Shown here one piece after another: positions 27,853 through 43,720 of a DNA stretch of 44,062 bases. Position numbers and translations under genes: made by a program. The notes beneath the pieces were generated by a model. It was given only the letters and a program-made list of their open reading frames with translations, did not search any database and was not told the origin of the DNA. Source of the DNA: a virus (lineage: Duplodnaviria > Heunggongvirae > Uroviricota > Caudoviricetes); IMG/VR virus record IMGVR_UViG_2529292906_000019, positions 1-44,062 of that record. One strand, 5' to 3'. The first letter of the stretch is position 1; the number at the start of each line of letters is the position of its first letter.

Positions 27853-28152
27853 TCAATCCGTTGATATTATGATATCAGAGGGTTGGGTGATGCGGTAGCC
27901 AAGTCGGCGAAGAAAACGAGTCCCAGATGAAAGGTTGAAGACCCCTTCATCCTCCAGTAATGGACGGCATGATACCAGGCCATTTCTGCTATAGACGAGA
28001 TACTGACGATCCAGTGGCATTGAGGCCATAAGCCTTCCATCTGAACGCCTGATAATGTCGTACCAATCGCCTTGCTCCTGACTTTCCTTCACAAAACCCC
28101 CTTCTTTGCTATCAACAAATTTCACTCTTCCAGCCGGGATAATCCCGTCCAC
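27853..28152 (-). CDS. hypothetical protein
   Basis: 99-aa ORF with a GTG start and no clear RBS; first ORF after a 440-bp AT-rich gap. Confidence 0.3.
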   Translation of the reverse strand: MDGIIPAGRVKFVDSKEGGFVKESQEQGDWYDIIRRSDGRLMASMPLDRQYLVYSRNGLVSCRPLLEDEGVFNLSSGTRFLRRLGYRITQPSDIIISTD

Positions 28153-28588
28153 AGAACCAACATACCAAATGGCGCAAATTTCCTAATAGGTTGGCTGGAA
28201 GAAAAAATAAAAATATTTACTGCAACATCTTAACTATACCCCAAAACAACTGTACATATAAACAGTATTCGTCTGTTTTGCTTAAGTATGCACATGAAAT
28301 CCCTGTTTGCGCAAGGTCATTTATCCGATTGATTTAGATAAATTTTATTGCTACTTTCGCGCAAAAATTGATCGTTATTTTTAACAGTTGACTACGTCAA
28401 AACTGTCGACTGTAAATATCTGATTGGAATGCTCTCGTCAGGTAAATGACAAAGGTGTAGATGTCGTCAGGGGACATATTTCACTGACAGCGAGGAAAGT
28501 CAGGTTGGTAATTTGTTGCTGCGCTGTGCTTATTTGATAATCGATTTCATAGATCAATTTTACCAAATCGATCGGTATTATCGATCGA

Positions 28589-28843: not shown

Positions 28844-29086
28844 TTATTTTTTCTCGTTCTGCGCGGCCAGATCCAGATAGCGCGGATCGGACGCTCTTGG
28901 CAACGTCATGCTCTGCTCGCGGTAGTTGAAGTATTCACGAAGATGCTCTGGTTTCTCACGCGCTACCTGCTCATCGATAACAGGCATGTTCATGCGCTCT
29001 TTGTACGCTACGCCACTGGCAGCTAGGTCGACGTTAACCTTGTCCTGCTCTTCTTTCGATTTTGCTGCGATGTTATGACCAGACAT
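28844..29086 (-). CDS. hypothetical protein
   Basis: 80-aa ORF with an ATG start; its SD-like GAGAGGGA lies inside a perfect 9-bp hairpin. Confidence 0.4.
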
Positions 29087-30688: not shown

Positions 30689-31054
30689 ATGCCCTTAAGC
30701 ACAGATGTTGATCGTGTGTTAACGTTCACTGAAAGACTTGAACAAATTTTAATGGAAATGGTCGAAAAACATGACCATTTCTTTGACTTCCTTCGAGTAC
30801 GGGGTGGACAAAATCTTCCCCAAACTGTTTCAGTAAAAAATGAAAAATTCAAAATTAGCATCCCATTGATTATGCTAATTTTGTTAATCACACGCTTAAT
30901 AGTCTTCAAACTTGCGATTATGTATAAGCTCATAAGATCCAAAATGCTTGAAGTGAAAGCACTGTCTAAAGTAGGCCAAAACACGCATATCTATCTTTTT
31001 GATTTAGATACAGTTCGGAAATTGAACATTAAGGAGACCTTATGTCACGCATGA
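30689..31054 (+). CDS. first gene of the three-gene cassette, unknown function
   Basis: 121-codon ORF in AT-rich DNA; RBS AGGTAAGGA before the ATG; overlaps the next gene by 13 nt. Confidence 0.45.
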   Translation: MPLSTDVDRVLTFTERLEQILMEMVEKHDHFFDFLRVRGGQNLPQTVSVKNEKFKISIPLIMLILLITRLIVFKLAIMYKLIRSKMLEVKALSKVGQNTHIYLFDLDTVRKLNIKETLCHA

Positions 31055-31317
31055 AAAAGCCTGACAGCTTTCTCCTTAGATTCAAAGAAGAAGATGGTAT
31101 CAACGGTATCAGTTCTGAATCCTTTGAAAAACTAATGAAAGCTACTGGCATGAGTAAAACAGACCTCATGCATTTTGCACTCGTAAACTTAGTGGAAAAA
31201 TACATCCCGGCTTATGAGCAAGATGATGGGCCCTTGACCGAAGCTCAATTCCGGACACTACATGAAAGATCGAAAACTAACCAAACGCCGGATGAGAGTT
31301 TCGAAATGCTATTGTAG
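31042..31317 (+). CDS. putative antitoxin, DinJ/RelB-like ribbon-helix-helix
   Basis: 91 aa; ...FKEEDGINGISSESFEKLMKATGMSKTDLMHFALVNLVEK parallels the DinJ N-terminal pattern recalled from memory; RBS AAGGAGA; directly upstream of the MazF-like gene. Confidence 0.5.
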   Translation: MSRMKKPDSFLLRFKEEDGINGISSESFEKLMKATGMSKTDLMHFALVNLVEKYIPAYEQDDGPLTEAQFRTLHERSKTNQTPDESFEMLL

Positions 31318-31325
31318 GTATAAAA

Positions 31326-31727
31326 ATGCATTCGAAAATAGAACCATTGCCAAAGACCGGCGATATTGTTTGGCTACAACCATCTGAAGAATGGGGAGTT
31401 GATACTCCCAAAAGGAGACCAGGTGTGGTATTAGGTGTATCGAAACTAAGGCATGAAATCATAGTTGCATTCGGTACGAGCCAAAAAACACACAAACTCT
31501 ACCCATCAGAGTTTCTTATTCAAAAAGCTGATGGCGATGATGTTTTTGGTCTATCTGGGTTAAGCTACGATACTAAATTTGACTTAGCCAGAACATCTAT
31601 CCTGCCTTTTACTACAGAGTTTTTCTCTAAGGCACCAAGAAAAAATAATGTCCCTTATCCAAAGCTTGGTAGTGTTCATATAACGTACTACAAAGCGATG
31701 TGCAAGGCGAAAAACAATAGTAATTGA
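31326..31727 (+). CDS. putative toxin, MazF/PemK/Kid-like fold
   Basis: 133 aa; GDIVWLQP...RRPGVVLGVS...IIVAFGTSQ...SEFLI parallels MazF GDLIWVDF...HRPAVVLS...VPCTTQ...FEVVL from memory. Confidence 0.6.
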   Translation: MHSKIEPLPKTGDIVWLQPSEEWGVDTPKRRPGVVLGVSKLRHEIIVAFGTSQKTHKLYPSEFLIQKADGDDVFGLSGLSYDTKFDLARTSILPFTTEFFSKAPRKNNVPYPKLGSVHITYYKAMCKAKNNSN

Positions 31728-32680: not shown

Positions 32681-33430
32681 TTATTTAACGATCCGGAGAT
32701 GACTAACGTTCTTGCGATAGCTGCCCCAGTCAAAGTTCACCCACATTCCGCCATCCATCTGGAGGCGATCGATAACCCGCGCACCCAATGCGCCGAGAAG
32801 TTCGTAATGGTTCAGATTCGTCAGAACGCCAACCGGGCGCATCGACGACAGCCGACGATCGATAACCTGATTCAGAATGACTTTCTCCCCGTTGCTACCG
32901 CGCTGAATACCGACTTCATCCAGCACCAGCAGATCGACTTTGCAGAGGTCATCCAGAAGTGAAGCCTCGGATTGACCACCGTCGTAGCACTCGCGAACGC
33001 GTAGCATCAGGTCAGGGATTGTCACCACCAGCACTGATTGGCCACCGGACAGGAGATGATTTCCGATCGCTGCTGCCAGATGGTTTTTCCCGGTACCAGG
33101 TCCACCGCTAAACACGAAGCTCGCAAAGCCAGCACCAAAGTTCTGTGCGTAGCTTTTCGCCATGGTGTAGGCCTTGCGCTGTTGCTCACCGGATACTTCG
33201 TAGTTGGCGAACGTGCAGCTGCGGTGCAGGCCCTGGATGCCAGAACGCCCGAAGATTTTCTCTGTGCGCGCTTTCTGATTCCGCTTGCCCAGCTCTTCGC
33301 AATGTTTCAAGCCTTCTTCCCGCTGCCACGCCAGCAGTTCTGCTGCATTGGTGAACTTCGGCTGTACGCCTGGCGGAATGAGTTTCTTCAGGCGCTCAAG
33401 AGCGCTGCCGGAATTAACAATGTTTTTCAC
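32681..33430 (-). CDS. replication protein, DnaC-like helicase loader
   Basis: 249 aa with Walker A GGPGTGKNHLAAAIG and Walker B LLVLDEVG; directly downstream of the O-like gene. Confidence 0.8.
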   Translation of the reverse strand: MKNIVNSGSALERLKKLIPPGVQPKFTNAAELLAWQREEGLKHCEELGKRNQKARTEKIFGRSGIQGLHRSCTFANYEVSGEQQRKAYTMAKSYAQNFGAGFASFVFSGGPGTGKNHLAAAIGNHLLSGGQSVLVVTIPDLMLRVRECYDGGQSEASLLDDLCKVDLLVLDEVGIQRGSNGEKVILNQVIDRRLSSMRPVGVLTNLNHYELLGALGARVIDRLQMDGGMWVNFDWGSYRKNVSHLRIVK

Positions 33431-33432
33431 CG

Positions 33433-34377
33433 TTACCCCCTGAATCCGGTTGGGATGGTTTTATCTGGCTCAGAAATGCGGTTCACATCCCTTCCCGTTT
33501 TGCGGTCGTTGAGAGCGAACTTCGGTTTGAACAGTCCCTGGTAGCCGTTGGCGATACTGGTGTTGATCACGTCAACCGGGTCATGCCCTGCGTCCAGGCA
33601 TGCCTTCAGCAACTTGAACGCTTTGGTGACCGTCAGTTCGGTCTTGATGGCTTTGCCAGACTGCTGGCGATAGGAAACCCACTCACCCCAGGACACAGAA
33701 TCAAGCCACTCAGGAACGAGAATTGTCAGCGGGTCAAACTTCACCTTCCCCCCTGGGGGATTAGAGGGGGTTAGATCTGTTTTTATATTTGTCTTTGGAA
33801 GAATGTCTTTGGTGTTCCCTGTTTTCAGGGATACCTCTCCCTGTTTTTGGGGATGGTTATCCCCGTTTTCAGGGATAGCTGAAGGGGTAAAATTGCTATC
33901 CCTGAATTCGGGGATGGTAATAACCCATGTAACAACTTCAGCAGCAGGAAACACCGCTGGACACTTCATGCAATTTGGCTTGGTATACGCCCATTTATCC
34001 AGGCTGGTATTAATCCCAATGTATCTGGTTTGCCCAATGCGGCGCAGGATGATGATGTTCCGATAGGCTAGGCTCAGCACGGCTTCTGAGACGTGTTTCA
34101 CCTTAAGCGTCGTTTTGTCTGCAATGAGGCTATTGGCGATGCGGTCCGAACTCTTGGACCAGCCATAGGTCAGACGAACGATAGCGTTCAGCACCCGGAA
34201 CTCACGCCCGGATAGTTCGACGATACACAGGGCATCCTGAATCTGGTTGGCCAGGCGCAAATAGCCTTTCTCCAGCTCAGCCATGCTGCTCTCCTGTTTC
34301 CCCTGCTGCGTGGGGAATTTGAATATTTCAGCGGTATTTGACATACTGTTCTCCGCAATTACCTTCCGTTTTTGCAC
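33433..34377 (-). CDS. replication initiator, lambda O-like
   Basis: 314-aa ORF that contains an iteron array plus an AT-rich tract in its coding sequence, as for lambda ori in O; followed by the DnaC-like gene. Confidence 0.7.
   Translation of the reverse strand: MQKRKVIAENSMSNTAEIFKFPTQQGKQESSMAELEKGYLRLANQIQDALCIVELSGREFRVLNAIVRLTYGWSKSSDRIANSLIADKTTLKVKHVSEAVLSLAYRNIIILRRIGQTRYIGINTSLDKWAYTKPNCMKCPAVFPAAEVVTWVITIPEFRDSNFTPSAIPENGDNHPQKQGEVSLKTGNTKDILPKTNIKTDLTPSNPPGGKVKFDPLTILVPEWLDSVSWGEWVSYRQQSGKAIKTELTVTKAFKLLKACLDAGHDPVDVINTSIANGYQGLFKPKFALNDRKTGRDVNRISEPDKTIPTGFRG
33816..33915. repeat. origin iterons, four ~18-bp inverted-repeat units
   Basis: TCCCTGTTTTCAGGGATA, TCCCTGTTTTTGGGGAT, ATCCCCGTTTTCAGGGATA, ATCCCTGAATTCGGGGAT, with an adjacent AT-rich tract at 33770..33815. 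Confidence 0.7.
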
Positions 34378-34428
34378 CTGAAAGCCGTTGGTGTTCTAGC
34401 ACCGCGGCTTTCGCCATTTTTGAACCCG

Positions 34429-34968
34429 TCATACAGCCCCCAGCATCAACTGCACCATCTCCATCAGCGGACCGGTTAAGCCAGGGTCAACGCGGTACAT
34501 CTCCACGATCCCCTCGCTCAGCTCTTTCAGCTTCTGATGACGCGGCGCATCCATTGCGACAGCTATCTTCGCTTCGCTGGTTTCCTTCTCCATACGTGCC
34601 AGACGGGCCATGACGTTGTCTTCTGGCAGCAGGCGACTGCGGTACACAATCGGCAGAACGGCGAGGATTGCAGGAGTCAGCTGGCGGACGTTCTCGCGGT
34701 AACGTTCGCTGTTGAAATGGTTATCCAGGAAGCGGAAAAGCTTCTGGCGCTTTCGGCAGAGATCGTCAGGGAAAGTGATGTCATCACCACCCTGTGCCTG
34801 GTACTCTTCGATGATCAGAGCCGTAACTACGTCCTGACCATCGGCACCAGCCCAGGAGCGGACCGCGTCACGAATATCTTCGTGGCTCGGCCCCCTACGT
34901 GCTTGAGCGCGATTTATCATTACCCCTTGAGTAATGTCGCTATCATTCTGGTAAGTAAGTGTCTGCAT
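34429..34968 (-). CDS. YdaT-like protein
   Basis: 179 aa; IIEEYQAQGGDDITFP and RQLTPAILAVLPIVYRSRL parallel E. coli Rac YdaT ITEEYLRQGGGELP and QKLIPAILAILPRELRHRL recalled from memory. Confidence 0.5.
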   Translation of the reverse strand: MQTLTYQNDSDITQGVMINRAQARRGPSHEDIRDAVRSWAGADGQDVVTALIIEEYQAQGGDDITFPDDLCRKRQKLFRFLDNHFNSERYRENVRQLTPAILAVLPIVYRSRLLPEDNVMARLARMEKETSEAKIAVAMDAPRHQKLKELSEGIVEMYRVDPGLTGPLMEMVQLMLGAV

Positions 34969-34979
34969 GGTTAATGCTC

Positions 34980-35189
34980 CTACTTTGGTAAACCGTCAGT
35001 GGGATTTGGGTAGAGATCTGGGCGCAGCTCGTGTGGCGTTACGCCGGTTGCCTCAAACACTGGTAGCACTCGTTCGGCAGGAATTCCTTTACGGCGCCAC
35101 AGCGAAACAGCCATTTTTGAAACGCCGATCAAAGCTCCAAGCGCGCTGGCCGAGCCAGATCGGAGAATTGCATTTTCAATACCAGTCAT
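34980..35189 (-). CDS. Cro/YdaS-like HTH DNA-binding protein
   Basis: 69 aa with an HTH segment (ALIGVSKMAVSLWRRKGIP); perfect SD GGAGG before the ATG; divergent from the repressor. Confidence 0.6.
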   Translation of the reverse strand: MTGIENAILRSGSASALGALIGVSKMAVSLWRRKGIPAERVLPVFEATGVTPHELRPDLYPNPTDGLPK

Positions 35190-35210
35190 AGGACCTCCTT
35201 AAGTGAGCAA

Positions 35211-35229
35211 AGTAAAGCACCAATTTACT
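35211..35229. promoter_or_regulatory. operator (right), 19-bp AGTAAAGCACCAATTTACT
   Basis: Inverted repeat AGTAAA-N7-TTTACT between the divergent cro-like and repressor genes; near-identical in reverse orientation at 36454..36472; adjacent palindrome TATTGAGTCAATA at 35229..35241. Confidence 0.5.
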
Positions 35230-35283
35230 ATTGAGTCAATACACGCCTGCCTACCAACTGGTAAAGCTATTGTTTACAATCCC

Positions 35284-35670
35284 TACATGAACAAAAAAGA
35301 TCCTAACCAGAGCCTTATTTCCAGGCTGACTGAATTGAATGGCAAAGGCTTCTCAAAAACAGAGATGGCCAAGGTTGCTAATGTCAGTAAGCAGGCGGTA
35401 ACCGGATGGTTTAGAACCGGTAAAATCAGCAAAGAATCTGCCCTCGCTGTTGCAGACGCTGCTGGCGTGTCTGTGCCATGGCTACTCGGCGAGGATGTTG
35501 GAGAGAAAGACGGCCTTAAGCCGGACGAACAGCGCCTGCTGGAGCTCTATCGCCAGTTGCCGGAAGAAGAGCAGCAGAACATGCTCCGCATCTTTGCCAT
35601 TCGCCTGAAAGAGTTGGACGAGTTGTATGAGAAATACATGAAGGGGCGTATTCGTTCTCAGGGAGAGTGA
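35284..35670 (+). CDS. prophage repressor, HTH XRE-type (RacR/CI-like, no peptidase domain)
   Basis: HTH segment ...FSKTEMAKVANVSKQAVTGWF...; start set at the internal ATG 35284 so that the operator lies in the intergenic region; the track ORF starts at GTG 35203. Confidence 0.5.
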   Translation, partial: YMNKKDPNQSLISRLTELNGKGFSKTEMAKVANVSKQAVTGWFRTGKISKESALAVADAAGVSVPWLLGEDVGEKDGLKPDEQRLLELYRQLPEEEQQNMLRIFAIRLKELDELYEKYMKGRIRSQGE

Positions 35671-35839
35671 TGTGTTCTGGTCGGAGAATGGCTGGTAGTG
35701 AACGGCGTGGCATTGCGCCAAGGCAATTAATTCAACCTCTTAGTCGCCATATCCCATAAAGGATTCCGGCTAAATTTGTTACCGATACTACCAATGCAAT
35801 TGTGGCAAAAATATCTGAACCGGACATAAGGAAATCTCC

Positions 35840-36271
35840 ATGAGTTATAGCGACATTGTTGCAACTATTGCAATGATTGTATCTATCACTGCTGTTCCTG
35901 CAAGTGGTTATTTAAGCTATCGTTACGCAATTGAGGGAGAAAAGAGGAAGGAGTGGAATGGTGTTGTTGAGCCAATTCTTGAGTATTTAGAGGGGCATGA
36001 ACTATTTCTAAGCAAAAAGAAATGCCCTGATTATACTTTCCACAGCTTTCCATCAAAAAACTGGGATGCAGCGATTAGAAGATCTAAAGATCCAAAAAAA
36101 TACCAACAAGCGCTTCAAGATTACCGGTCAGTATTGAATGAAATAAAAACATCTCCGGCACCAGTTATTTATTTTGGGCAATCTGAGTCTGAGCGCGAGG
36201 AGTGGATTGACCGATACCCTGACGGGATAAACAGGCTTAATGAACTAATGACAATTCTAGCGTTGAAATAA
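35840..36271 (+). CDS. membrane-anchored protein in the rex/sieB position (candidate exclusion protein)
   Basis: 143 aa with an N-terminal TM helix (IVATIAMIVSITAVPASGYL); RBS AAGGAA; same orientation as the repressor; followed by two tandem terminators. Confidence 0.5.
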   Translation: MSYSDIVATIAMIVSITAVPASGYLSYRYAIEGEKRKEWNGVVEPILEYLEGHELFLSKKKCPDYTFHSFPSKNWDAAIRRSKDPKKYQQALQDYRSVLNEIKTSPAPVIYFGQSESEREEWIDRYPDGINRLNELMTILALK

Positions 36272-36396
36272 CCCGGCCACCGAGCCGGGTTTTTTATACC
36301 CCCCACCGGATCGCCTCCAAGCGTCTGCCCCGAACTCCCCAATCCCGGCCTTAGCGTCGGGATTTTTTTTGTCTTCTATTGCTCAATTTCATACTC
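36272..36396 (+). terminator. two tandem rho-independent terminators
   Basis: CCCGGCCACCGAGCCGGG followed by TTTTTT, then ATCCCGGCCTTAGCGTCGGGAT followed by TTTTTTTT. Confidence 0.6.
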
Positions 36397-36453
36397 CAAA
36401 ACAATCAGGTAAAGCATTGCTGTACTTTTTATCACCTCATTGCTTGACCATTT

Positions 36454-36472
36454 AGTAAAGTGGTGATTTACT
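36454..36472. promoter_or_regulatory. operator (left), 19-bp AGTAAAGTGGTGATTTACT
   Basis: Matches the reverse complement of the right operator with two mismatches; lies at the start of the + strand early-left operon. Confidence 0.5.
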
Positions 36473-36718
36473 AGTATCACCAAGACGCACCACGAACCAC
36501 TCAGGCAGGACGCCCACGAAGTAGCCGCCGACGGCATATGAATAGTCGGATGAGGTGGTTAGATTAACGCGCATCAGGTTTAACGCTCAGCTGGCCGGCT
36601 ATAAGGCAAAACAGAAGTGAGCTTCGCGGTGGTGAACTGCAGAGTTAAATCGCTCAACTGTGAAGATCAGCACCACGGCACCACCAGCGAAGTTCACTCA
36701 GCAATAGTGGAGAACATC

Positions 36719-36925
36719 ATGGTTCATCAGCACTACGGTACACAGACGGTAAACCGCGGCGCGGTTCAGCCTGGAATGCTCGTCAAACACAAGGATTCAA
36801 CCTGGACGGCATCAGCTAATGCTCGTGGTCGTTTGTATCTGCATCGCGGCGTTGAGATGACTTACACCAGGGATTTGCTGGTTGAAGTTTATCTGAACGG
36901 TCTGGGGAATGGCCTCAGCCATTAA
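36719..36925 (+). CDS. small early protein (68 aa), unknown
   Basis: ATG at 36719 preceded by GGAG; first gene of the early-left operon; the track ORF extends upstream to a GTG at 36617. Confidence 0.35.
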   Translation: MVHQHYGTQTVNRGAVQPGMLVKHKDSTWTASANARGRLYLHRGVEMTYTRDLLVEVYLNGLGNGLSH

Positions 36926-36936
36926 CGGAGAGTGTC

Positions 36937-37098
36937 ATGCAAGACAAGAAATGCGGTTACTGCAGCAAGCCGGTTAAACCGGAAGAAGTAATCAAAGGCA
37001 CCCTTCTCTACCGCAACGGCTCACTGCTGGCGCGCAAAGAGAAAGAGTACTGTTCCAGACGTTGCGCTTCGCACGACCAGATGGCTCACGAAGGCTAA
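36937..37098 (+). CDS. small zinc-ribbon-like protein (53 aa)
   Basis: MQDKKCGYCSKP...EYCSRRCASHDQ with two CxxC-type pairs; RBS GGAG 6 nt upstream; below the ORF-track length cutoff. Confidence 0.4.
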   Translation: MQDKKCGYCSKPVKPEEVIKGTLLYRNGSLLARKEKEYCSRRCASHDQMAHEG

Positions 37099-37237: not shown

Positions 37238-37879
37238 ATGGAATTCTTTAATGTGGTTAAAGCCACTCAGAAATCCGGAAAACAAGATGCAGTGGTCTGG
37301 TTCACTGCGAAAACCGAGGCTCGCGCCAACCTGCAACTGGACGTTGCACTGGAAGATGCTGGCATCGAAATGGGTCGCGGTAAGGACTACGCCAAACCGA
37401 TTCGCACAGATTTTCCTGTTGTTGATGACCTGCCAGAAGAAGGCGAAGTTGATTTCACATGGTGCGAACGTTACGAACTGGCCGAAGACCAGCGCACCTG
37501 GAATGTTAAGCAACAGGCTGAAGATGAGTCTGTCGACGACGCCGATACTGAAGACAGCACCGCAGAAGAATCTCAGCAGTCAGAGCAGCCGAACCTGATC
37601 GTCGTTGCCACCCTGCCATTCCGTCAGCGCGTACTGGCTCAGTTCATCGGTGATGGTGAATATCTCTATCACGTCGACGCTGGGCAGAAAAACGAGATTG
37701 TCCGCCTTGAGATGGACACTGATAACGCGTACGCCCAAAACCTGCTGCTGGCTGCTGAGAATGTGGAAGCATTCAAAAAAGCCATTGAGCACGATATCCA
37801 TAAAGTCGTGAATGCCGTTAAGAAAGCCTTCCCTGTCGACGGTAAAAACCGGAACTGGCAACAGTTATCCAGTTCCTGA
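37238..37879 (+). CDS. recE: exonuclease VIII (RecE), N-terminal fragment
   Basis: 213 aa; ...TDFPVVDDLPEEGEVDFTWCERYELAEDQRTW matches the E. coli RecE N-terminal region (...[28 protein letters not shown]) from memory; separated from the rest of recE by a frame change near 37844..37850. Confidence 0.65.
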   Translation: MEFFNVVKATQKSGKQDAVVWFTAKTEARANLQLDVALEDAGIEMGRGKDYAKPIRTDFPVVDDLPEEGEVDFTWCERYELAEDQRTWNVKQQAEDESVDDADTEDSTAEESQQSEQPNLIVVATLPFRQRVLAQFIGDGEYLYHVDAGQKNEIVRLEMDTDNAYAQNLLLAAENVEAFKKAIEHDIHKVVNAVKKAFPVDGKNRNWQQLSSS

Positions 37880-37881
37880 CG

Positions 37882-39996
37882 GTGTGGTTCAACACTGATT
37901 ACATCGACCGTGGCATCCTGGCGCGCGAATGGACCGCCGGTAACCGCATCAGCAATGTTCAGCGCACCGATTCCGGTACCAACGCCGACGGCGGATATGT
38001 CACTGACCGTGGCGAAAATGCTTACCACACGCTGGATACTCTGGATTTAGAGATTGCCTGCGCCCTGCTCCCAATGGACTTTAACCATCTTGAAATCCCG
38101 GGCAGCATCCACCGCCGCGCCAAAGAGATAGTGGCCAACAAAGAACAACCATGGAAATCATGGAGCAGCATCCTGCGCAATCAGCCTGGCGTTCTGTCGG
38201 TAAACCGCGCTGCCATCTTCAATCTGGTGCGCATCGCGCCGGAAAATATTCACCTGACGCCAGTTGCACATCTGGAGTTCGTTAACCAGACCATGACAGC
38301 TGAGTTCAATTCAGCAACTGAGTTGCTGCCGTTGCCAGTAGCTGGCGCGCAGGAACCAAACAGTCAGGATCAACCTCGAGTTGAGAATCTTGGCGCTGGA
38401 ATTTTCTCCATAGAAAGCCTGATGGGTGATCAACAACCAAAAACAGATGACCGTTCACCACTTAATGAGGAAACCACCAGCGATGTGCAGATGGAAGAAA
38501 CTGTCAGTGATGAAGAACAGGCTGGTAATGAAGTGCAGCCAGGCGAAAGCAGTCTGGAAACTGGTGAAGAGTCACATACCGGCCAGCAAGCCGATGTAAA
38601 CCAGAATGCGGACTCTGTCGTCCAAAATAGCGATTCTGTAAACCAAGCCGAACCAGTTGCTGCGCAAACCGAGCCAGAAGCGAAATCTGACGAACCGGCT
38701 GTTGTGTATCCCGCTTACTTCGAGCCTGGGCGCTATGAAGGTCTGCCGAACGAGGTTTATCACGCAGCGAACGGGATCAGCAGCACGCAGGTAAAAGATG
38801 CCCGCGTCAGCCTGATGTACTTCAACGCACGCCACGTCGCCAAAACGATCACCAAAGAGCGTTCTCCAGTTCTGGACATGGGTAACCTGGTGCATGGACT
38901 GGCGTTGCAGCCAGAGCAGCTTGATGAAGAGTTCAGCGTTGAACCGATGATCCCGGAAGGCGCGTTCACCACGACGGCAACAATCCGCGCGTTTATCGAT
39001 GAGTACAACGCAGGTCTGCCAGAGCAATTGAGCGCCGACGACATAAAGACATTGCTCGAGGAATACAACGCCACTCTGCCTGCTCAGGTACCACTGGGTG
39101 GTTCAGTCGAGGAAACTGGCCAGAGCTACATGTCGCTGCCAGAAGAGTACCAGCGGATCGAAGCGGACCAGAAGCAGACCGCAGCGGCGATGAAAGCCTG
39201 CATCAAGGAATACAACGCCAATCTGCCTGCCCAGGTGAAAACCAGTGGTAGCCGTGATGCCTTACTCGAGCAGCTGGCAATCATCAATCCTGACCTGGTG
39301 GCGCAGGAAGCGCAGAAACCGCAACCGCTGAAAGTGTCCGGTACCAAAGCGGATCTGATTCAGACCGTGAAGTCTGTGAAACCAGACGCCGTCTTTGCCG
39401 ACGAACTGCTGGATGCGTGGCGCGAGAATCCGCAAGGGAAAGTACTGGTCACCCGCCAGCAACTGAGCACCGCACTGGCCATTCAGAAAGCCCTGCTACA
39501 GCACCCAACTGCCGGGATGCTGCTTCAGTACCCGAGTCGCGCCGTTGAGGTCAGCTATTTTGGCTTTGACGATGAAACCGGTCTGGAAGTCCGCGTTCGT
39601 CCAGACCTTGAGATCGACCTGGACGGAGTGCGCATCGGTGCCGACCTGAAAACCATCAGCATGTGGAACATTAAGCAGGAAGGCCTGCGCGCCAAGCTGC
39701 ACCGGGAAATCATCGACCGTGACTACCATCTGAGCGCCGCCATGTATTGCGAGACCGCAGCACTGGACCAGTTCTTCTGGATTTTCGTCAACAAGGACGA
39801 GAACTACCACTGGATCGCCATCATCGAGGCATCCGCCGAACTGCTGGAGCTGGGCATGCTTGAGTACCGCAAATCAATGCGTGCTATCGCTACCGGCTTT
39901 GACACTGGCGAATGGCCAGCGCCCATCACAGCTGATTATACCGACGAACTGAACGACTTCGACCTGCGCCGCCTTGAAGCGCTGCGTCTGGCTTAA
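37882..39996 (+). CDS. recE: exonuclease VIII (RecE), central and C-terminal nuclease part
   Basis: 704 aa from a GTG; ...WFNTDYIDRGILAREWTAGNRISNVQRTDSG... matches RecE (...[31 protein letters not shown]); the C-terminal region contains the ...GRYEGLPNEVYH... segment; frame is open upstream to 37846. Confidence 0.7.
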   Translation: MWFNTDYIDRGILAREWTAGNRISNVQRTDSGTNADGGYVTDRGENAYHTLDTLDLEIACALLPMDFNHLEIPGSIHRRAKEIVANKEQPWKSWSSILRNQPGVLSVNRAAIFNLVRIAPENIHLTPVAHLEFVNQTMTAEFNSATELLPLPVAGAQEPNSQDQPRVENLGAGIFSIESLMGDQQPKTDDRSPLNEETTSDVQMEETVSDEEQAGNEVQPGESSLETGEESHTGQQADVNQNADSVVQNSDSVNQAEPVAAQTEPEAKSDEPAVVYPAYFEPGRYEGLPNEVYHAANGISSTQVKDARVSLMYFNARHVAKTITKERSPVLDMGNLVHGLALQPEQLDEEFSVEPMIPEGAFTTTATIRAFIDEYNAGLPEQLSADDIKTLLEEYNATLPAQVPLGGSVEETGQSYMSLPEEYQRIEADQKQTAAAMKACIKEYNANLPAQVKTSGSRDALLEQLAIINPDLVAQEAQKPQPLKVSGTKADLIQTVKSVKPDAVFADELLDAWRENPQGKVLVTRQQLSTALAIQKALLQHPTAGMLLQYPSRAVEVSYFGFDDETGLEVRVRPDLEIDLDGVRIGADLKTISMWNIKQEGLRAKLHREIIDRDYHLSAAMYCETAALDQFFWIFVNKDENYHWIAIIEASAELLELGMLEYRKSMRAIATGFDTGEWPAPITADYTDELNDFDLRRLEALRLA

Positions 39997-42055: not shown

Positions 42056-42328
42056 ATGGCCAAGCTTCTTAATCTGCAGGAATGGGCGAATTCGACTTAT
42101 TCAACCCCGCCGTCTCTTTCAACACTTCGCCGCTGGGCGCGGGAGGGGCGCATTTACCCTGCTCCGGAACTTCACGGAAAAGAATATAAGGTTCAGCCTG
42201 ACGCCATCTATGTGGATCCGAGCAAAAAGAACCTTCGTCCCAAATCAAAACGCTTAGCGCTGCCAACTGGCGGCACTCTACTGGAGAGACTGACTCATGG
42301 CGAAAAGGCCAGTACGTTACGACGCTAA
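42056..42328 (+). CDS. xis: excisionase (lambda Xis-like)
   Basis: LNLQEWANS...PPSLSTLRRWAREGRIYPAPELHGKEY parallels lambda Xis LTLQEW...RPRSLETVRRWVRECRIFPPPVKDGREY; precedes int with overlap. Confidence 0.65.
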   Translation: MAKLLNLQEWANSTYSTPPSLSTLRRWAREGRIYPAPELHGKEYKVQPDAIYVDPSKKNLRPKSKRLALPTGGTLLERLTHGEKASTLRR

Positions 42329-43382
42329 CCTGCCCCGTAACCTGACCTATCGTAAAAGAGACAGGCTTTATAGCTGGCGAAACCCGATTACCGGTCAAGA
42401 ATTATCTCTTGGCCGGATCGACAGAAAGGACGCCATTTCTCAGGCCATCGAGGCCAACAACTACATCGACCAAAATTACCTTCCGTCAGCGCTGCTTGAC
42501 CGCATAAAGGAAACACCAACATTTACGGTGAAAGCGTGGCTCGAGCGCTACGAAGTAATTCTTGAGCGAAGAGAATTGAAGCCCAACACGATGAAGGTCA
42601 GGCGCAATCAGATCGCCACTATCAGTGATGAATTCGGACGTATGCCGCTATCGGCGGTCAGCACAAAGGACGTATCTACTTTCCTGGAGAGTTACATACT
42701 CTGCGATAAGAAGAGCATGGCCTCTGGCCTGCGATCGGTATTGTTGGATATTTTCAGGGAGGCGATCGTCGAGGGACATATTGAAAGGAACCCGGCAGAG
42801 CCGACAAGAACGCCGACACCAAAAGTGAAGCGTGAGCGTCTTTTGCTCGAGCAGTTTGAGATAATAAGGGATGCCGCAACTGCTCATTCTGGATGGGCTG
42901 CAAATGCATGTGACCTGGCGCTGGTCACCGGGCAGAGAAGAGAGGACGTATCGCTGTTCAGATTCAGCGATATCAGGGATGGAAGATTGTTTGTCACACA
43001 GGAAAAGACAGGTCACAAATTGGCGTTGCCACTTGATTTGCGACTGGACTCTGCTGATTTGGTATTGCAGGATGTTATCGACCGTTGTCGTAAAAACAAC
43101 CCGTCAGACTTCATGCTTTATTCTGCGGTAAGGCGTGGTGGCCGGAAGCCAGGTCCGTTAACTCCGGACGGAATCACCCAAGCATTTTCTGATATCAGGG
43201 ATTCTACAGAGTTAAAGTTTGGCCCCAACCCTCCCCCGTTCCATGAGATCAGGAGCTTGGCGAGCAGGCTCTATGAAAGGGAGCGCGGAGAGGATTTCGC
43301 ACAGAGACTGCTGGGGCATAAAAATTTAACAATGACCAAAAAATACCTGGACGCACGCGGTGCAGAATATGTTATGGTTTAG
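42297..43382 (+). CDS. int: site-specific integrase (tyrosine recombinase, lambda Int family)
   Basis: 361 aa; C-terminal catalytic region ...HEIRSLASRLYERERG...RLLGHKNLTMTKKYLDARG (conserved R, H-x-x-R and Y); adjacent to attR. Confidence 0.85.
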   Translation: MAKRPVRYDANLPRNLTYRKRDRLYSWRNPITGQELSLGRIDRKDAISQAIEANNYIDQNYLPSALLDRIKETPTFTVKAWLERYEVILERRELKPNTMKVRRNQIATISDEFGRMPLSAVSTKDVSTFLESYILCDKKSMASGLRSVLLDIFREAIVEGHIERNPAEPTRTPTPKVKRERLLLEQFEIIRDAATAHSGWAANACDLALVTGQRREDVSLFRFSDIRDGRLFVTQEKTGHKLALPLDLRLDSADLVLQDVIDRCRKNNPSDFMLYSAVRRGGRKPGPLTPDGITQAFSDIRDSTELKFGPNPPPFHEIRSLASRLYERERGEDFAQRLLGHKNLTMTKKYLDARGAEYVMV

Positions 43383-43455: not shown

Positions 43456-43485
43456 AGATAAAAAGAGACCGAATACGATTCCTGT
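43456..43485. repeat. prophage attachment site attR (integrase side), within the sdsR 3' end
   Basis: AGATAAAAAGAGACCGAATACGATTCCTGT; direct repeat of 1064..1093 with one mismatch. Confidence 0.6.
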
Positions 43486-43562
43486 ATTCGGTCCAGGGAA
43501 ATGGCTCTTGGGAGAGAGCCGTGCGCTAAAAGTTGGCATTAATGCAGGCTTAGTTGCCTTGC
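43458..43562 (-). ncRNA. sdsR: small RNA SdsR (RyeB)
   Basis: The minus strand reads GCAAGGCAACTAAGCCTGCATTAATGCC...GACCGAATACAGGAATCGTATTCGGTCTCTTTTT, matching SdsR as recalled, with a terminal hairpin and U-tract; CTATTCTTAA (sigma-S type -10) lies just upstream at ~43566..43576. Confidence 0.75.
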
Positions 43563-43720
43563 CCTTTAAGAATAGATGACGACGCCAGGTTTTCCAGTTT
43601 GCGTGCAAAATGGTCAATAAAAAGCGCGGTAGTCATCAGCTTAAATGTTAAAAACCGCCCGTTCTGGTGAAAGAACTGAGGCGGTTTTTTTATTGGAAAT
43701 CAAAAGGCTATTTTAGGTAA

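Follow-up and report, generated by a model that had tools for sequence, protein, structure and literature searches.

The window analyzed here, a stretch of 44,062 nucleotides, raises two connected questions: whether a single repressor governs both early promoters of the prophage that it carries, and how such a repressor would be switched off after DNA damage. An earlier note, made from the letters of the DNA, had read the locus as an immunity region. In keeping with this, the repressor and cro genes diverge, two operator sites lie inside the 97-bp gap between them, and the same operator type occurs at PL, as in lambdoid switches. From sequence, conservation, covariation, homology and synteny, we consider it highly probable that the region controls immunity and induction in a lambdoid prophage of the Rac/Gifsy kind, with a non-cleaved repressor, shared operators and a LexA-controlled antirepressor. 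The window also encodes a replication module, Q-region genes, an integrase, an intact LexA-antirepressor unit and a long run of large minus-strand ORFs (taken as a group); recE is frameshifted, so the prophage may be partly decayed. No close copy of the immunity region was found in the complete E. coli genomes searched, and nothing relevant on "mEp237" was found in the literature searched. The features are listed in Table 1.

Table 1. Features of the immunity region, the early-left operon and the antirepressor unit (positions in the window)
Feature	Position	Strand	Description
DUF1367/irsA homologue	27218-27817	-	directly downstream of antirepressor, as in Gifsy prophages; Pfam DUF1367 5.9e-91
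Predicted antirepressor	27853-28092	-	GfoA/GfhA homologue by sequence homology; 79 aa, GTG start
LexA box CTGT-N8-ACAG	28250-28265	-	reads TACTGTTTATATGTACAGTT on minus strand; overlaps -35 of promoter-like site
YdaT-family protein	34429-34968	-	179 aa; CII-analogue position downstream of cro; Pfam YdaT_toxin 8.8e-25
Cro analogue, YdaS family	34980-35189	-	69 aa; first gene of PR operon; Pfam YdaS_toxin 1.6e-12
PR -10-like hexamer TTTACT	35211-35216	-	inside OR1
OR1	35211-35229	.	19-bp predicted operator over PR spacer and -10-like hexamer; kept in all class-A relatives
PR -35 hexamer TTGACT	35234-35239	-	inferred promoter assignment
OR2	35260-35278	.	second predicted operator; overlaps -10 of predicted leaderless repressor promoter
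Repressor-promoter -10 TACAAT	35275-35280	+	predicted; ATG 35287 6 nt after
Repressor	35287-35670	+	127 aa; GfoR/GfhR family; five-helix Xre/434-type HTH and conserved C-terminal helix-turn-long-helix domain
143-aa protein	35840-36271	+	function unassigned; PHROG 34525; co-oriented with repressor, in variable cargo slot before PL
Two tandem intrinsic terminators	36270-36372	+	predicted to end repressor transcript and insulate PL
OL2	36408-36426	.	auxiliary predicted operator; centre 46 bp upstream of OL1 centre
PL	36444-36472	+	-35 TTGACC 36444-36449, 4 nt, OL1 36454-36472; OL1 3' half TTTACT is -10-like hexamer
PL leader RNA	36497-36558	+	conserved structured element, ~62 nt, three-helix; 25 nt after OL1
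Kil (KilR-like)	36719-36925	+	first ORF of early-left operon; PHROG 294 at 7e-35
YdaE-like ORF	36937-37098	+	after Kil; followed by frameshifted recE

We examined the 19-mer that the earlier note had placed between the repressor and the cro-like gene (AGTAAAGCACCAATTTACT, 35211-35229), together with its near-exact reverse complement at the head of the early-left operon (AGTAAAGTGGTGATTTACT, 36454-36472). Both were found at these positions, and 17 of the 19 letters agree once the first is reverse-complemented; the pair was also recovered as inverted repeat I2 in a repeat search of the window. Both are imperfect palindromes of the form AGTAAA-N7-TTTACT, and a TTGACY -35 hexamer lies 4 nt upstream of each, so that the match spans 29 nt. 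The combined pattern TTGACY-N4-AGTAAA-N7-TTTACT occurs exactly twice in the 44-kb window, on opposite strands, compared with no occurrence in 100 shuffles. When the palindrome alone was searched with up to two mismatches, five matches were obtained in the 44 kb, four of them inside the two regulatory regions. The picture of one 19-mer in each control region thus held for the two places named but missed a further site in each, GGTAAAGCTATTGTTTACA at 35260-35278 and GGTAAAGCATTGCTGTACT at 36408-36426. The centre-to-centre spacings within the pairs (49 and 46 bp, approximately 4.4-4.7 helical turns) do not lend themselves obviously to cooperative binding side by side.

The 13-bp sequence that had been described as a second palindrome abutting the right operator (TATTGAGTCAATA) is present at 35229-35241, but its palindromy is not kept in class-A loci, where only GTCAA is conserved; this core is the PR -35 hexamer, and we rejected the palindrome as a separate element. 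The A that is near-invariant at position 2 of a -10 hexamer is missing from TTTACT, so that a sigma-70 scan of positions 34900-36800 returned no promoter; the exact promoter registers are uncertain. The layout of PL (-35, 4 nt, operator) is common to all immunity classes. The tandem terminators upstream of it were borne out, with stems at 36270-36291 and 36341-36364 and a T-run after each.

We then compared the operators among relatives. Every relative that shares the HTH has the 19-mer at both places, which is what the proposal of the earlier note required. All four sites are kept in the six tabulated loci of this class (class A), which stem from Leclercia, Enterobacter, Superficieibacter and Franconibacter and consist of the window plus five relatives; the contig L036, a seventh class-A member, also has all four, the seven prophages representing at least five genera. 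GTA(A/C)A is found in 48 of 48 half-sites of the six loci, the central bases being variable, OR2 is nearly invariant among the six members aligned, and the OL2-OL1 spacing of 45-46 bp is kept in relatives. Thirteen further relatives have the same C-terminal domain with three other HTH classes and three other operator types, and in each of these the OR sequence is found again 153-2442 bp beyond the stop codon of the repressor, always 4 nt after TTGAC. In 19 relatives, a change in the HTH class of repressor and Cro goes with a change in the operators, at both promoters together. Because the sites at PR and PL change together with these HTHs, this covariation indicates that one immunity specificity governs both early promoters, in agreement with the expectation of the earlier note that one repressor would control the two.

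The repressor itself was searched against Pfam, where it matched HTH_3 and Phage_CI_repr only. The view that it has no autocleavage domain is consistent with the lack of a peptidase (S24) match, its short length (127 aa) and its all-helical AlphaFold model (pLDDT 83.7), and a repressor of this kind would indeed need another route to SOS induction, as had been proposed. Being short and having neither an S24 domain nor an Ala-Gly site, it resembles the GfoR/GfhR type. Its start is most likely ATG 35287 rather than GTG 35203 (155 aa), given that in the other immunity classes the frame upstream of the ATG is closed. By sequence, the repressor is a member of the GfoR/GfhR family of Salmonella Gifsy-1/Gifsy-3. 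It shares 85% identity with P0141, a GfhR-type protein of Salmonella, to which Salmonella P0148 (loci L029-L032) is near-identical; the published primers le110 and le111 (long and short starts of gfhR) match both start codons of P0148, the gfoR start primer le108 matches class-D relatives of the repressor, and both 3'-end primers, le101 and le103, encode the C-terminus of the family. The family comprises 799 clusters, every one labelled only "HTH domain protein" or similar. The earlier comparison with RacR did not hold: the alignment covers only 28 HTH residues (36% identity), homology over the full length is absent, and the operator, AGTAAAG-N5-ATTTACT, is unlike the RacR operators, (T/A)TAGGC-n3-GCCTA(T/A) (PMC9638921). 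Foldseek searches of the PDB with the repressor model matched the HTH domain alone, with every E-value above 0.01. The top PDB sequence match, ubiquitin, rests on a short biased stretch (residues 71-93) and was treated as spurious.

The YdaS and YdaT assignments were confirmed, as both Pfam matches exceed their gathering cut-offs (PF15943, 47.5 bits against 30; PF06254, 87.4 bits against 21). The Cro analogue shares 40% identity with Rac YdaS. The HTH at its N-terminus changes with the class of the repressor, and the tail at its C-terminus, TGVTPHELRPDLYPNPTDGLPK, is conserved. The YdaT-family protein is 32% identical to Rac YdaT and is matched by the CII-like activators of PHROG 163 (3.7e-55); YdaT is now described as a CII analogue (PMC9986795, PMC11879457). 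A cro gene followed by a YdaT-like gene had been likened to Rac, and this is right for family and order, but the YdaT gene is a shuffling cassette that is not tied to the immunity class: three variants occur among relatives and shuffle independently of it. Searching for the YdaT box TTGATT-N6-AATCAA with up to three mismatches gave 20 matches in the window against 21.9 expected, none of them at the cro/ydaT junction; as recognition helices vary across the YdaT family (PMC9986795), another type of box is possible. An inverted repeat at the junction, GGTTTACC...TTAACC, was rejected as a YdaT box, being conserved only as coding sequence for the Cro tail DGLPK.

Between the repressor and PL, relatives carry different cargo. 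The 143-aa protein found here has a hydrophobic N-terminus (read from the translation) and gave no Pfam or PADLOC match, and PADLOC on the neighbouring small ORFs was also empty. Downstream, Kil is 33% identical to Rac KilR. The leader RNA of PL is unannotated and exhibits strong compensatory covariation. In 55 phage records it occupies the corresponding place directly after the repressor gene, irrespective of the repressor type, the hosts being Escherichia, Salmonella, Shigella, Klebsiella, Yersinia, Pectobacterium and Aeromonas. Rfam searches of the whole window and of 34300-37000 gave no match for it, its covariance model matched nothing in HK022, Rac or Gifsy-2, and the literature searched held nothing relevant on its sequence. 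No N gene was seen at the operon head in these Rac/Gifsy-like genomes, and the leader could for this reason be a cis-acting antitermination element. We put forward as a tentative and rather unlikely idea that the operators are only half of the early-left control, the other half being this leader as an undescribed antitermination or RNA-polymerase-modifying RNA that acts in cis like HK022 putL.

A canonical LexA box (CTGTACATATAAACAG) is located at 28250-28265, upstream of a 79-aa ORF lying 7 kb from the immunity region. The published gfoA primers pp866, pp867 and le117 match a Salmonella ORF with which this ORF shares 51% identity (E 2e-27). The link to Gifsy was made through GfoA rather than through Gifsy-2 GftA, to which direct likeness is weak and suggestive only (BLASTP E 0.14, hhalign probability 39%). 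Among 50,697 phage records, the eight that carry a homologue of the ORF are the eight best repressor matches, and in three HTH classes the ORF family strictly accompanies the repressor C-terminal domain. Nine further contexts, spanning three different HTH classes, repeat the order LexA box, (dinI), antirepressor, DUF1367. The window and L033-L036 lack dinI, the opening gene of the SOS operon in Gifsy, which is present in phage and Salmonella relatives; irsA/DUF1367 is present here. According to the Gifsy study (PMC3121763), GfoR and GfhR stay uncleaved during induction, the LexA-controlled GfoA/GfhA inactivate them, and deletion of dinI is without effect. These observations suggest that an antirepressor induced by DNA damage and encoded in the same window is the most likely means of switching the repressor off. 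The target of the antirepressor is probably the repressor C-terminal domain, to judge only from the conservation of this domain across heteroimmune classes.

We propose the following circuit. The repressor, presumably dimeric, would bind the 19-bp pseudo-palindromes through half-sites of the form (A/G)GTAAA(G). Occupancy of OR1, downstream of the PR -35 hexamer and over the -10 region, would block the cro(ydaS)-ydaT-O-dnaC operon, and occupancy of OL1, in the identical position at PL, would block kil-ydaE-recE. OR2, placed over the -10 of the leaderless repressor promoter, would provide negative autoregulation, and OL2 would contribute cooperativity or loop formation between OL and OR. For the lytic state, the YdaS-type Cro would be expected at the same sites; its recognition helix and that of the repressor co-vary. 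DNA damage would inactivate LexA and free the promoter at 28250-28265, and the 79-aa GfoA-type antirepressor, as its homology implies, would then bind the uncleaved repressor and take it off the DNA.

Could the 19-mers instead be mainly sites of the YdaS-like Cro, or duplicated promoter sequence, with the repressor acting elsewhere? They overlap core promoter elements, and covariation alone cannot tell Cro from repressor, since the Cro HTH also changes with the sites; but the 19-mer varies with the HTH class next to an unchanging -35 TTGAC, which is not expected of plain promoter similarity, and a lysogen must silence both PR and PL, for which no other motif common to the two regions was found. 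Repressor and Cro of lambda-type switches use common operators, which makes the two readings complementary rather than exclusive, and an arrangement with the repressor acting elsewhere appears very improbable. A distinctly improbable account, too, is that the LexA-controlled 79-aa ORF is an unrelated SOS gene and that the prophage is induced by some other signal. The ORF has no Pfam match, and none of its 65 homologues has an annotated function, which would allow such an account, but its homology to the ORF amplified as gfoA, its strict co-occurrence with one repressor domain and the Gifsy synteny of the whole unit all argue for an antirepressor.

The frameshift in recE and the confirmed YdaS and YdaT families might also be taken to indicate a RacR-type addiction module, that is, a cryptic-prophage repressor that is essential through toxic YdaS/YdaT and has no real induction pathway, as RacR of Rac is essential because of the toxicity of YdaS/YdaT (PMC5700377, PMC5700373). 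To this explanation we give very little credence: the repressor is no homologue of RacR, immunity classes exchange YdaT cassettes freely, YdaT is described as a CII analogue that is non-toxic in CP-933P (PMC9986795; PMC9638921), and the window has the phage functions named above, from the replication module to the intact LexA-antirepressor unit.

The preferred reading, a non-cleaved repressor removed by a LexA-controlled antirepressor, assigns two genes, an unannotated repressor and a 79-aa ORF labelled "hypothetical", to the antirepressor circuit that experiments have defined in Gifsy, and operator sequences are now given for four immunity classes. The analysis also points to a pairing, common to heteroimmune phages, of a single antirepressor family with a single conserved C-terminal domain. 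If true, this pairing would account for cross-induction between prophages that share a host cell in Enterobacter, Leclercia, Klebsiella and Salmonella exposed to SOS-inducing antibiotics.

Among known systems, Bacillus SinR-SinI is alike in architecture only, with an Xre-type HTH and a C-terminal helical domain targeted by a small antagonist; SinR chains are among the best fold matches of the repressor, all at Foldseek E-values above 0.01, and as there is no sequence relationship beyond the HTH, this is analogy and not membership. Qin DicA-DicC-Rem and CP-933P PaaR2-YdaS-YdaT have short HTH repressors of the same broad group; the CI/Cro/CII analogy holds for modules of this type (PMC8630535), and Rem, found through its similarity to GfoA, acts as an antirepressor (PMC10448788). 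They differ from the present switch in their operators, and PaaR2 also controls a toxin-antitoxin pair. E. coli K-12 Rac has the same gene order, homologues of YdaS, YdaT, KilR, YdaE and RecE, and a cargo slot between repressor and kil, whereas its repressor and operators are unrelated beyond the HTH residues and no YdaT box was found here. As in lambda, operators lie between divergent repressor and cro genes, the operator type is repeated at PL beyond genes cotranscribed with the repressor and a terminator, and an operator overlaps the repressor promoter, the repressor mRNA being predicted to be leaderless here; in contrast to lambda, each region has two sites 46-49 bp apart instead of three adjacent ones, there is no S24 cleavage domain and no N gene, and induction is predicted to occur by an antirepressor.

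The closest likeness is to Gifsy-1/Gifsy-3 (Salmonella ATCC14028; Lemire et al. 2011, PMC3121763). In the sections covered here, which were not found to give operator sequences, these prophages have the same repressor and antirepressor families, a short repressor classed as non-cleavable (here from sequence), heteroimmune HTHs on a common C-terminal domain, a LexA box and antirepressor followed by irsA/DUF1367, and a recE/kil left operon; the gfhR promoter of Gifsy-3 maps between two in-frame starts, a layout also predicted for the window. The differences are that the HTH here is a close variant of that of GfhR (85% identical) in a different host group (Leclercia/Enterobacter), that the LexA box and the antirepressor have no dinI between them, and that the CII position is occupied by a YdaT-type gene, compared with a lambda-CII-like gene in the Salmonella relatives examined. 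The switch belongs to a family already studied in Salmonella and is an ordinary member of it, one that extends the known picture and does not change it.

Both 19-mers that the earlier note had proposed as a shared operator at the divergent early promoters PR (cro(ydaS)-ydaT) and PL (kil-ydaE-recE) were found exactly where it had placed them (OR1 and OL1 in the table). Each is an imperfect palindrome (AGTAAA-N7-TTTACT), OL1 is identical to the reverse complement of OR1 at 17 of 19 positions, and the likeness extends outward to a –35 hexamer at both. Two copies of the composite of –35 hexamer and operator were found in the 44-kb window, compared with none in 100 shuffles, and the pair also constitutes inverted repeat I2. 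When up to 2 mismatches were allowed, four of the five matches in the window fell inside the two control regions, and two of these sites (OR2 and OL2) had previously gone unnoticed. The tandem terminators were confirmed, as was a 13-bp palindrome described beside the right operator, although only its GTCAA (the PR –35) was kept among relatives. On the plus strand, the repressor is followed by a 143-aa protein, two terminators, Kil, a YdaE-like ORF and recE.

Coordinates of features in the window
Feature	Position	Strand	Remark
Exact CTGT-N8-ACAG match	4687-4702		CTGTGTCAAACGACAG
LexA box	28250-28265	minus (reading)	TACTGTTTATATGTACAGTT; overlaps promoter-like site
DNA polymerase III theta (HolE-like) gene	28844-29086	minus	
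Gene pair (91-aa and 133-aa ORFs)	31042-31727	plus	
DnaC-like gene	32681-33430	minus	
O-like gene	33433-34377	minus	
YdaT family gene	34429-34968	minus	
YdaS family gene	34980-35189	minus	Cro analogue
Upstream in-frame GTG extension	35203-35286	plus	155-aa repressor form
OR1	35211-35229		predicted operator
PR composite	35211-35239	minus	TTGACT-CAAT-AGTAAATTGGTGCTTTACT
OR2	35260-35278		predicted operator
TACAAT	35275-35280		
Repressor	35287-35670	plus	ATG at 35287
Repressor stop–PL interval	35671-36443		
32-nt inverted repeat	35784-35883	plus	
OL2	36408-36426		predicted operator
PL composite	36444-36472	plus	TTGACC-ATTT-AGTAAAGTGGTGATTTACT
OL1	36454-36472		predicted operator
Conserved structured RNA (~62 nt)	36497-36558	plus	PL leader; core 36502-36553
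recE	37238-39996	plus	frameshift around 37849
Integrase gene	42297-43382		
SraC/RyeA and SdsR/RyeB sRNA genes	43456-43600		

OR1 at PR and OL1 at PL would each cover the 17-bp promoter spacer together with a –10-like hexamer (TTTACT). A consensus promoter scanner reported no promoter in the control region because the second base of this hexamer is not the usual A; shifting the register by 2 nt could instead give TACTTT and TACTAG, and a spacer of 19 nt. A TACAAT hexamer ending 6 nt ahead of the repressor ATG is overlapped by OR2; from this, the repressor mRNA is predicted to be leaderless and the repressor to repress its own gene through OR2. This placement agrees with that of Gifsy-3 gfhR, whose promoter, according to PMC3121763, was placed by experiment between two in-frame start codons. 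The 155-aa repressor form of annotation pipelines begins inside OR1, and its "conserved" extension is no more than operator sequence in translation; the GfhR* long form of Gifsy-3 is reported to accumulate on induction.

Scanning one genome per species, we found 19 enterobacterial repressor relatives with 67–100% identity. They have a modular build, with a nearly invariant C-terminal stretch of ~60 residues (WLLGEDVGEKDGLKPDEQRLLELYRQLPEEEQQNMLRIFAIRLKELDELYEKYMKGRIR) and an HTH half that belongs to one of four classes. The window is in class A, together with five of the scanned relatives (L001–L004 and L018) from Leclercia, Enterobacter, Superficieibacter and Franconibacter. All four sites were kept in these six loci (24 sites), with GTA(A/C)A in 48/48 half-sites and variable central bases, and a seventh class A locus, on contig L036, also had all four; thus, none of the class A immunity regions examined lacked the operator. 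The other classes carry GTAAACC-N5-ATTTAC (three sites at 24-bp spacing), TTAAGCC-type or TTAAAC-N5-GTTTA sites. In each of them, the OR sequence recurs 3' of the repressor, 153 to 2442 bp beyond its stop codon, usually paired ~46 bp apart and always 4 nt behind a constant TTGAC. The Cro N-terminus shifts along with the repressor class (recognition helices SKQAVTGWF in the repressor and SKMAVSLWR in Cro for class A, SSQSVNNWF and SAMNVSHWR for class D), the Cro C-terminal tail is constant, and the YdaT cassette has three variants independent of immunity class. Since the sites co-vary with the HTH class of both proteins, the pattern is as expected for operators of one immunity specificity at both early promoters.

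The gene order resembles that of lambda and is the same as in Rac, whose YdaS, YdaT and KilR are 40%, 32% and 33% identical to their window counterparts; however, the alignment with RacR, a comparison proposed in the earlier note, was limited to 28 HTH residues. The family question was settled by published Gifsy primers (PMC3121763, Table 2 and supplement). Primers le108 and le144 (gfoR start, encoding MKEKTHQIN) matched class D relatives with 0–2 mismatches; in the Salmonella loci L029–L032, le110 (gfhR long start, MTKVKHH) matched with one mismatch and le111 (gfhR short start, MSDNT) matched exactly; le101 (gfoR 3' end) and le103 (gfhR 3' end) encode EKYMKGRIRTRED and AKYMSRRIKGEGA, both the family C-terminus. 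The protein encoded by L029–L032 (P0148) and the near-identical P0141, whose N-terminus is exactly MTKVKHH, are each 85% identical to the window repressor. Sites of the form AGTAAAG..TTTAC are present at both OR and PL in these Salmonella loci, which occupy the attachment sites of Gifsy-1 (rseC) and Gifsy-2 (pncB). GtgR of Gifsy-2 is a more distant relative (26% identity, the LLxLxxQLPExE motif included). By sequence, the repressor is GfoR/GfhR-like, and this label replaces "RacR-like". Its structure model (mean pLDDT 83.7) comprises a five-helix HTH, a linker and a helix-turn-long-helix, matches only HTH repressors (e.g. SinR, P22 C2 and 434) and contains no peptidase fold, consistent with the previously noted lack of an autocleavage domain.

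Conservation of the PL transcript over its first ~135 nt extends to all immunity classes, and this leader contains a structured RNA whose core is present at the same position in 55 phage records with unrelated repressors. In the eight records examined, the core lies in unannotated DNA 90–340 nt 3' of the repressor gene and on its strand, with S24-type and short repressors alike. The structure predicted by RNAalifold has a closing stem and two hairpins, one invariant (GGC/GCC) and one variable. In an alignment of 17 sequences, which was fitted to the model and thus favours structure, 97.3% of cells were pairing (74% in shuffles), double-change cells numbered 49 (14 expected) and the covariation score was 0.62 (at most 0.13 with partners slid); compensatory changes occurred in 9/13 pairs. 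An Rfam search gave no match, and a covariance model found one copy per locus and none in HK022 (putL), Rac or Gifsy-2. By analogy with putL of HK022, which occupies a similar position (PMC9378689), the RNA may be a put-like or nut-like element.

A variable cargo slot (153–2442 bp in relatives) separates the repressor stop from PL. In the window, it encodes the 143-aa protein, with a hydrophobic N-terminus in translation; in L029, L033, L035 and L036, it encodes HipA_2 with DUF3037, an AAA_23/SMC_N ATPase, DUF6932 or DUF6414. Such a slot resembles a hot spot for morons or defence genes expressed in the lysogen. The start codon of the 143-aa gene is flanked by an imperfect inverted repeat of 32 nt (78% complementary), possibly a structure that controls translation or transcription. 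Beyond PL, a frameshift splits recE: residues 8–229 of Gifsy-2 RecE align in one frame and 230–959 in another, with the junction near an A5 run (GGTAAAAACC). The gene could be a pseudogene or subject to programmed slippage, or the frameshift could be a sequencing error. The sRNA genes (178 and 116 bits) adjoin the integrase gene, which places both the attachment site and the prophage end at the ryeA/ryeB locus. Among the cargo that separates the replication genes from the LexA box are the HolE-like gene and the gene pair, whose 133-aa ORF is weakly MazF/PemK-like, below the Pfam cut-off. Leclercia, Pseudescherichia and Enterobacter are the sources of the closest relatives of the repressor and of the putative antirepressor.

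Only two exact CTGT-N8-ACAG boxes exist in the window, and the one at 4687, among large minus-strand ORFs, is probably due to chance because its centre is GC-rich. The putative antirepressor ORF 3' of the other was listed at 99 aa; a start at the GTG behind its best ribosome-binding site (AAGGGGG) gives 79 aa, the length of nearly all of its 65 database homologues, and irsA/DUF1367 is the next gene. Homologues were present in exactly 8 of 50,697 phage records, namely the eight best matches of the repressor. In five of six distinct phages, the order was LexA box, dinI, antirepressor ORF and DUF1367, which is the Gifsy arrangement (PMC3121763); the sixth, SW-37, yielded no LexA box. The Salmonella relatives have a corresponding 82-aa ORF, which is matched by the gfoA primers pp866, pp867 and le117 and is 51% identical to the window's putative antirepressor (E 2e-27). 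As in the window, dinI is missing in four further genomic contexts where the ORF follows a canonical LexA box, and the three that reach the immunity region combine the conserved repressor C-terminal domain with three different HTH classes. The antirepressor family would therefore be paired with this C-terminal domain. Together, the LexA box and the ORF would supply the SOS route for induction that a repressor lacking a cleavage domain needs.

We infer each mechanistic step from sequence, covariation, synteny and homology. On these grounds, the immunity feature is real and functional-looking, and the core of the earlier reading (an immunity region with a shared operator at both early promoters) stands without its RacR-like label. 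The proposed pairing fits the action of GfoA and GfhA, each of which, according to PMC3121763, acts on both heteroimmune repressors, GfoR and GfhR; by homology, the immunity region of the window is a member of this already characterised system.
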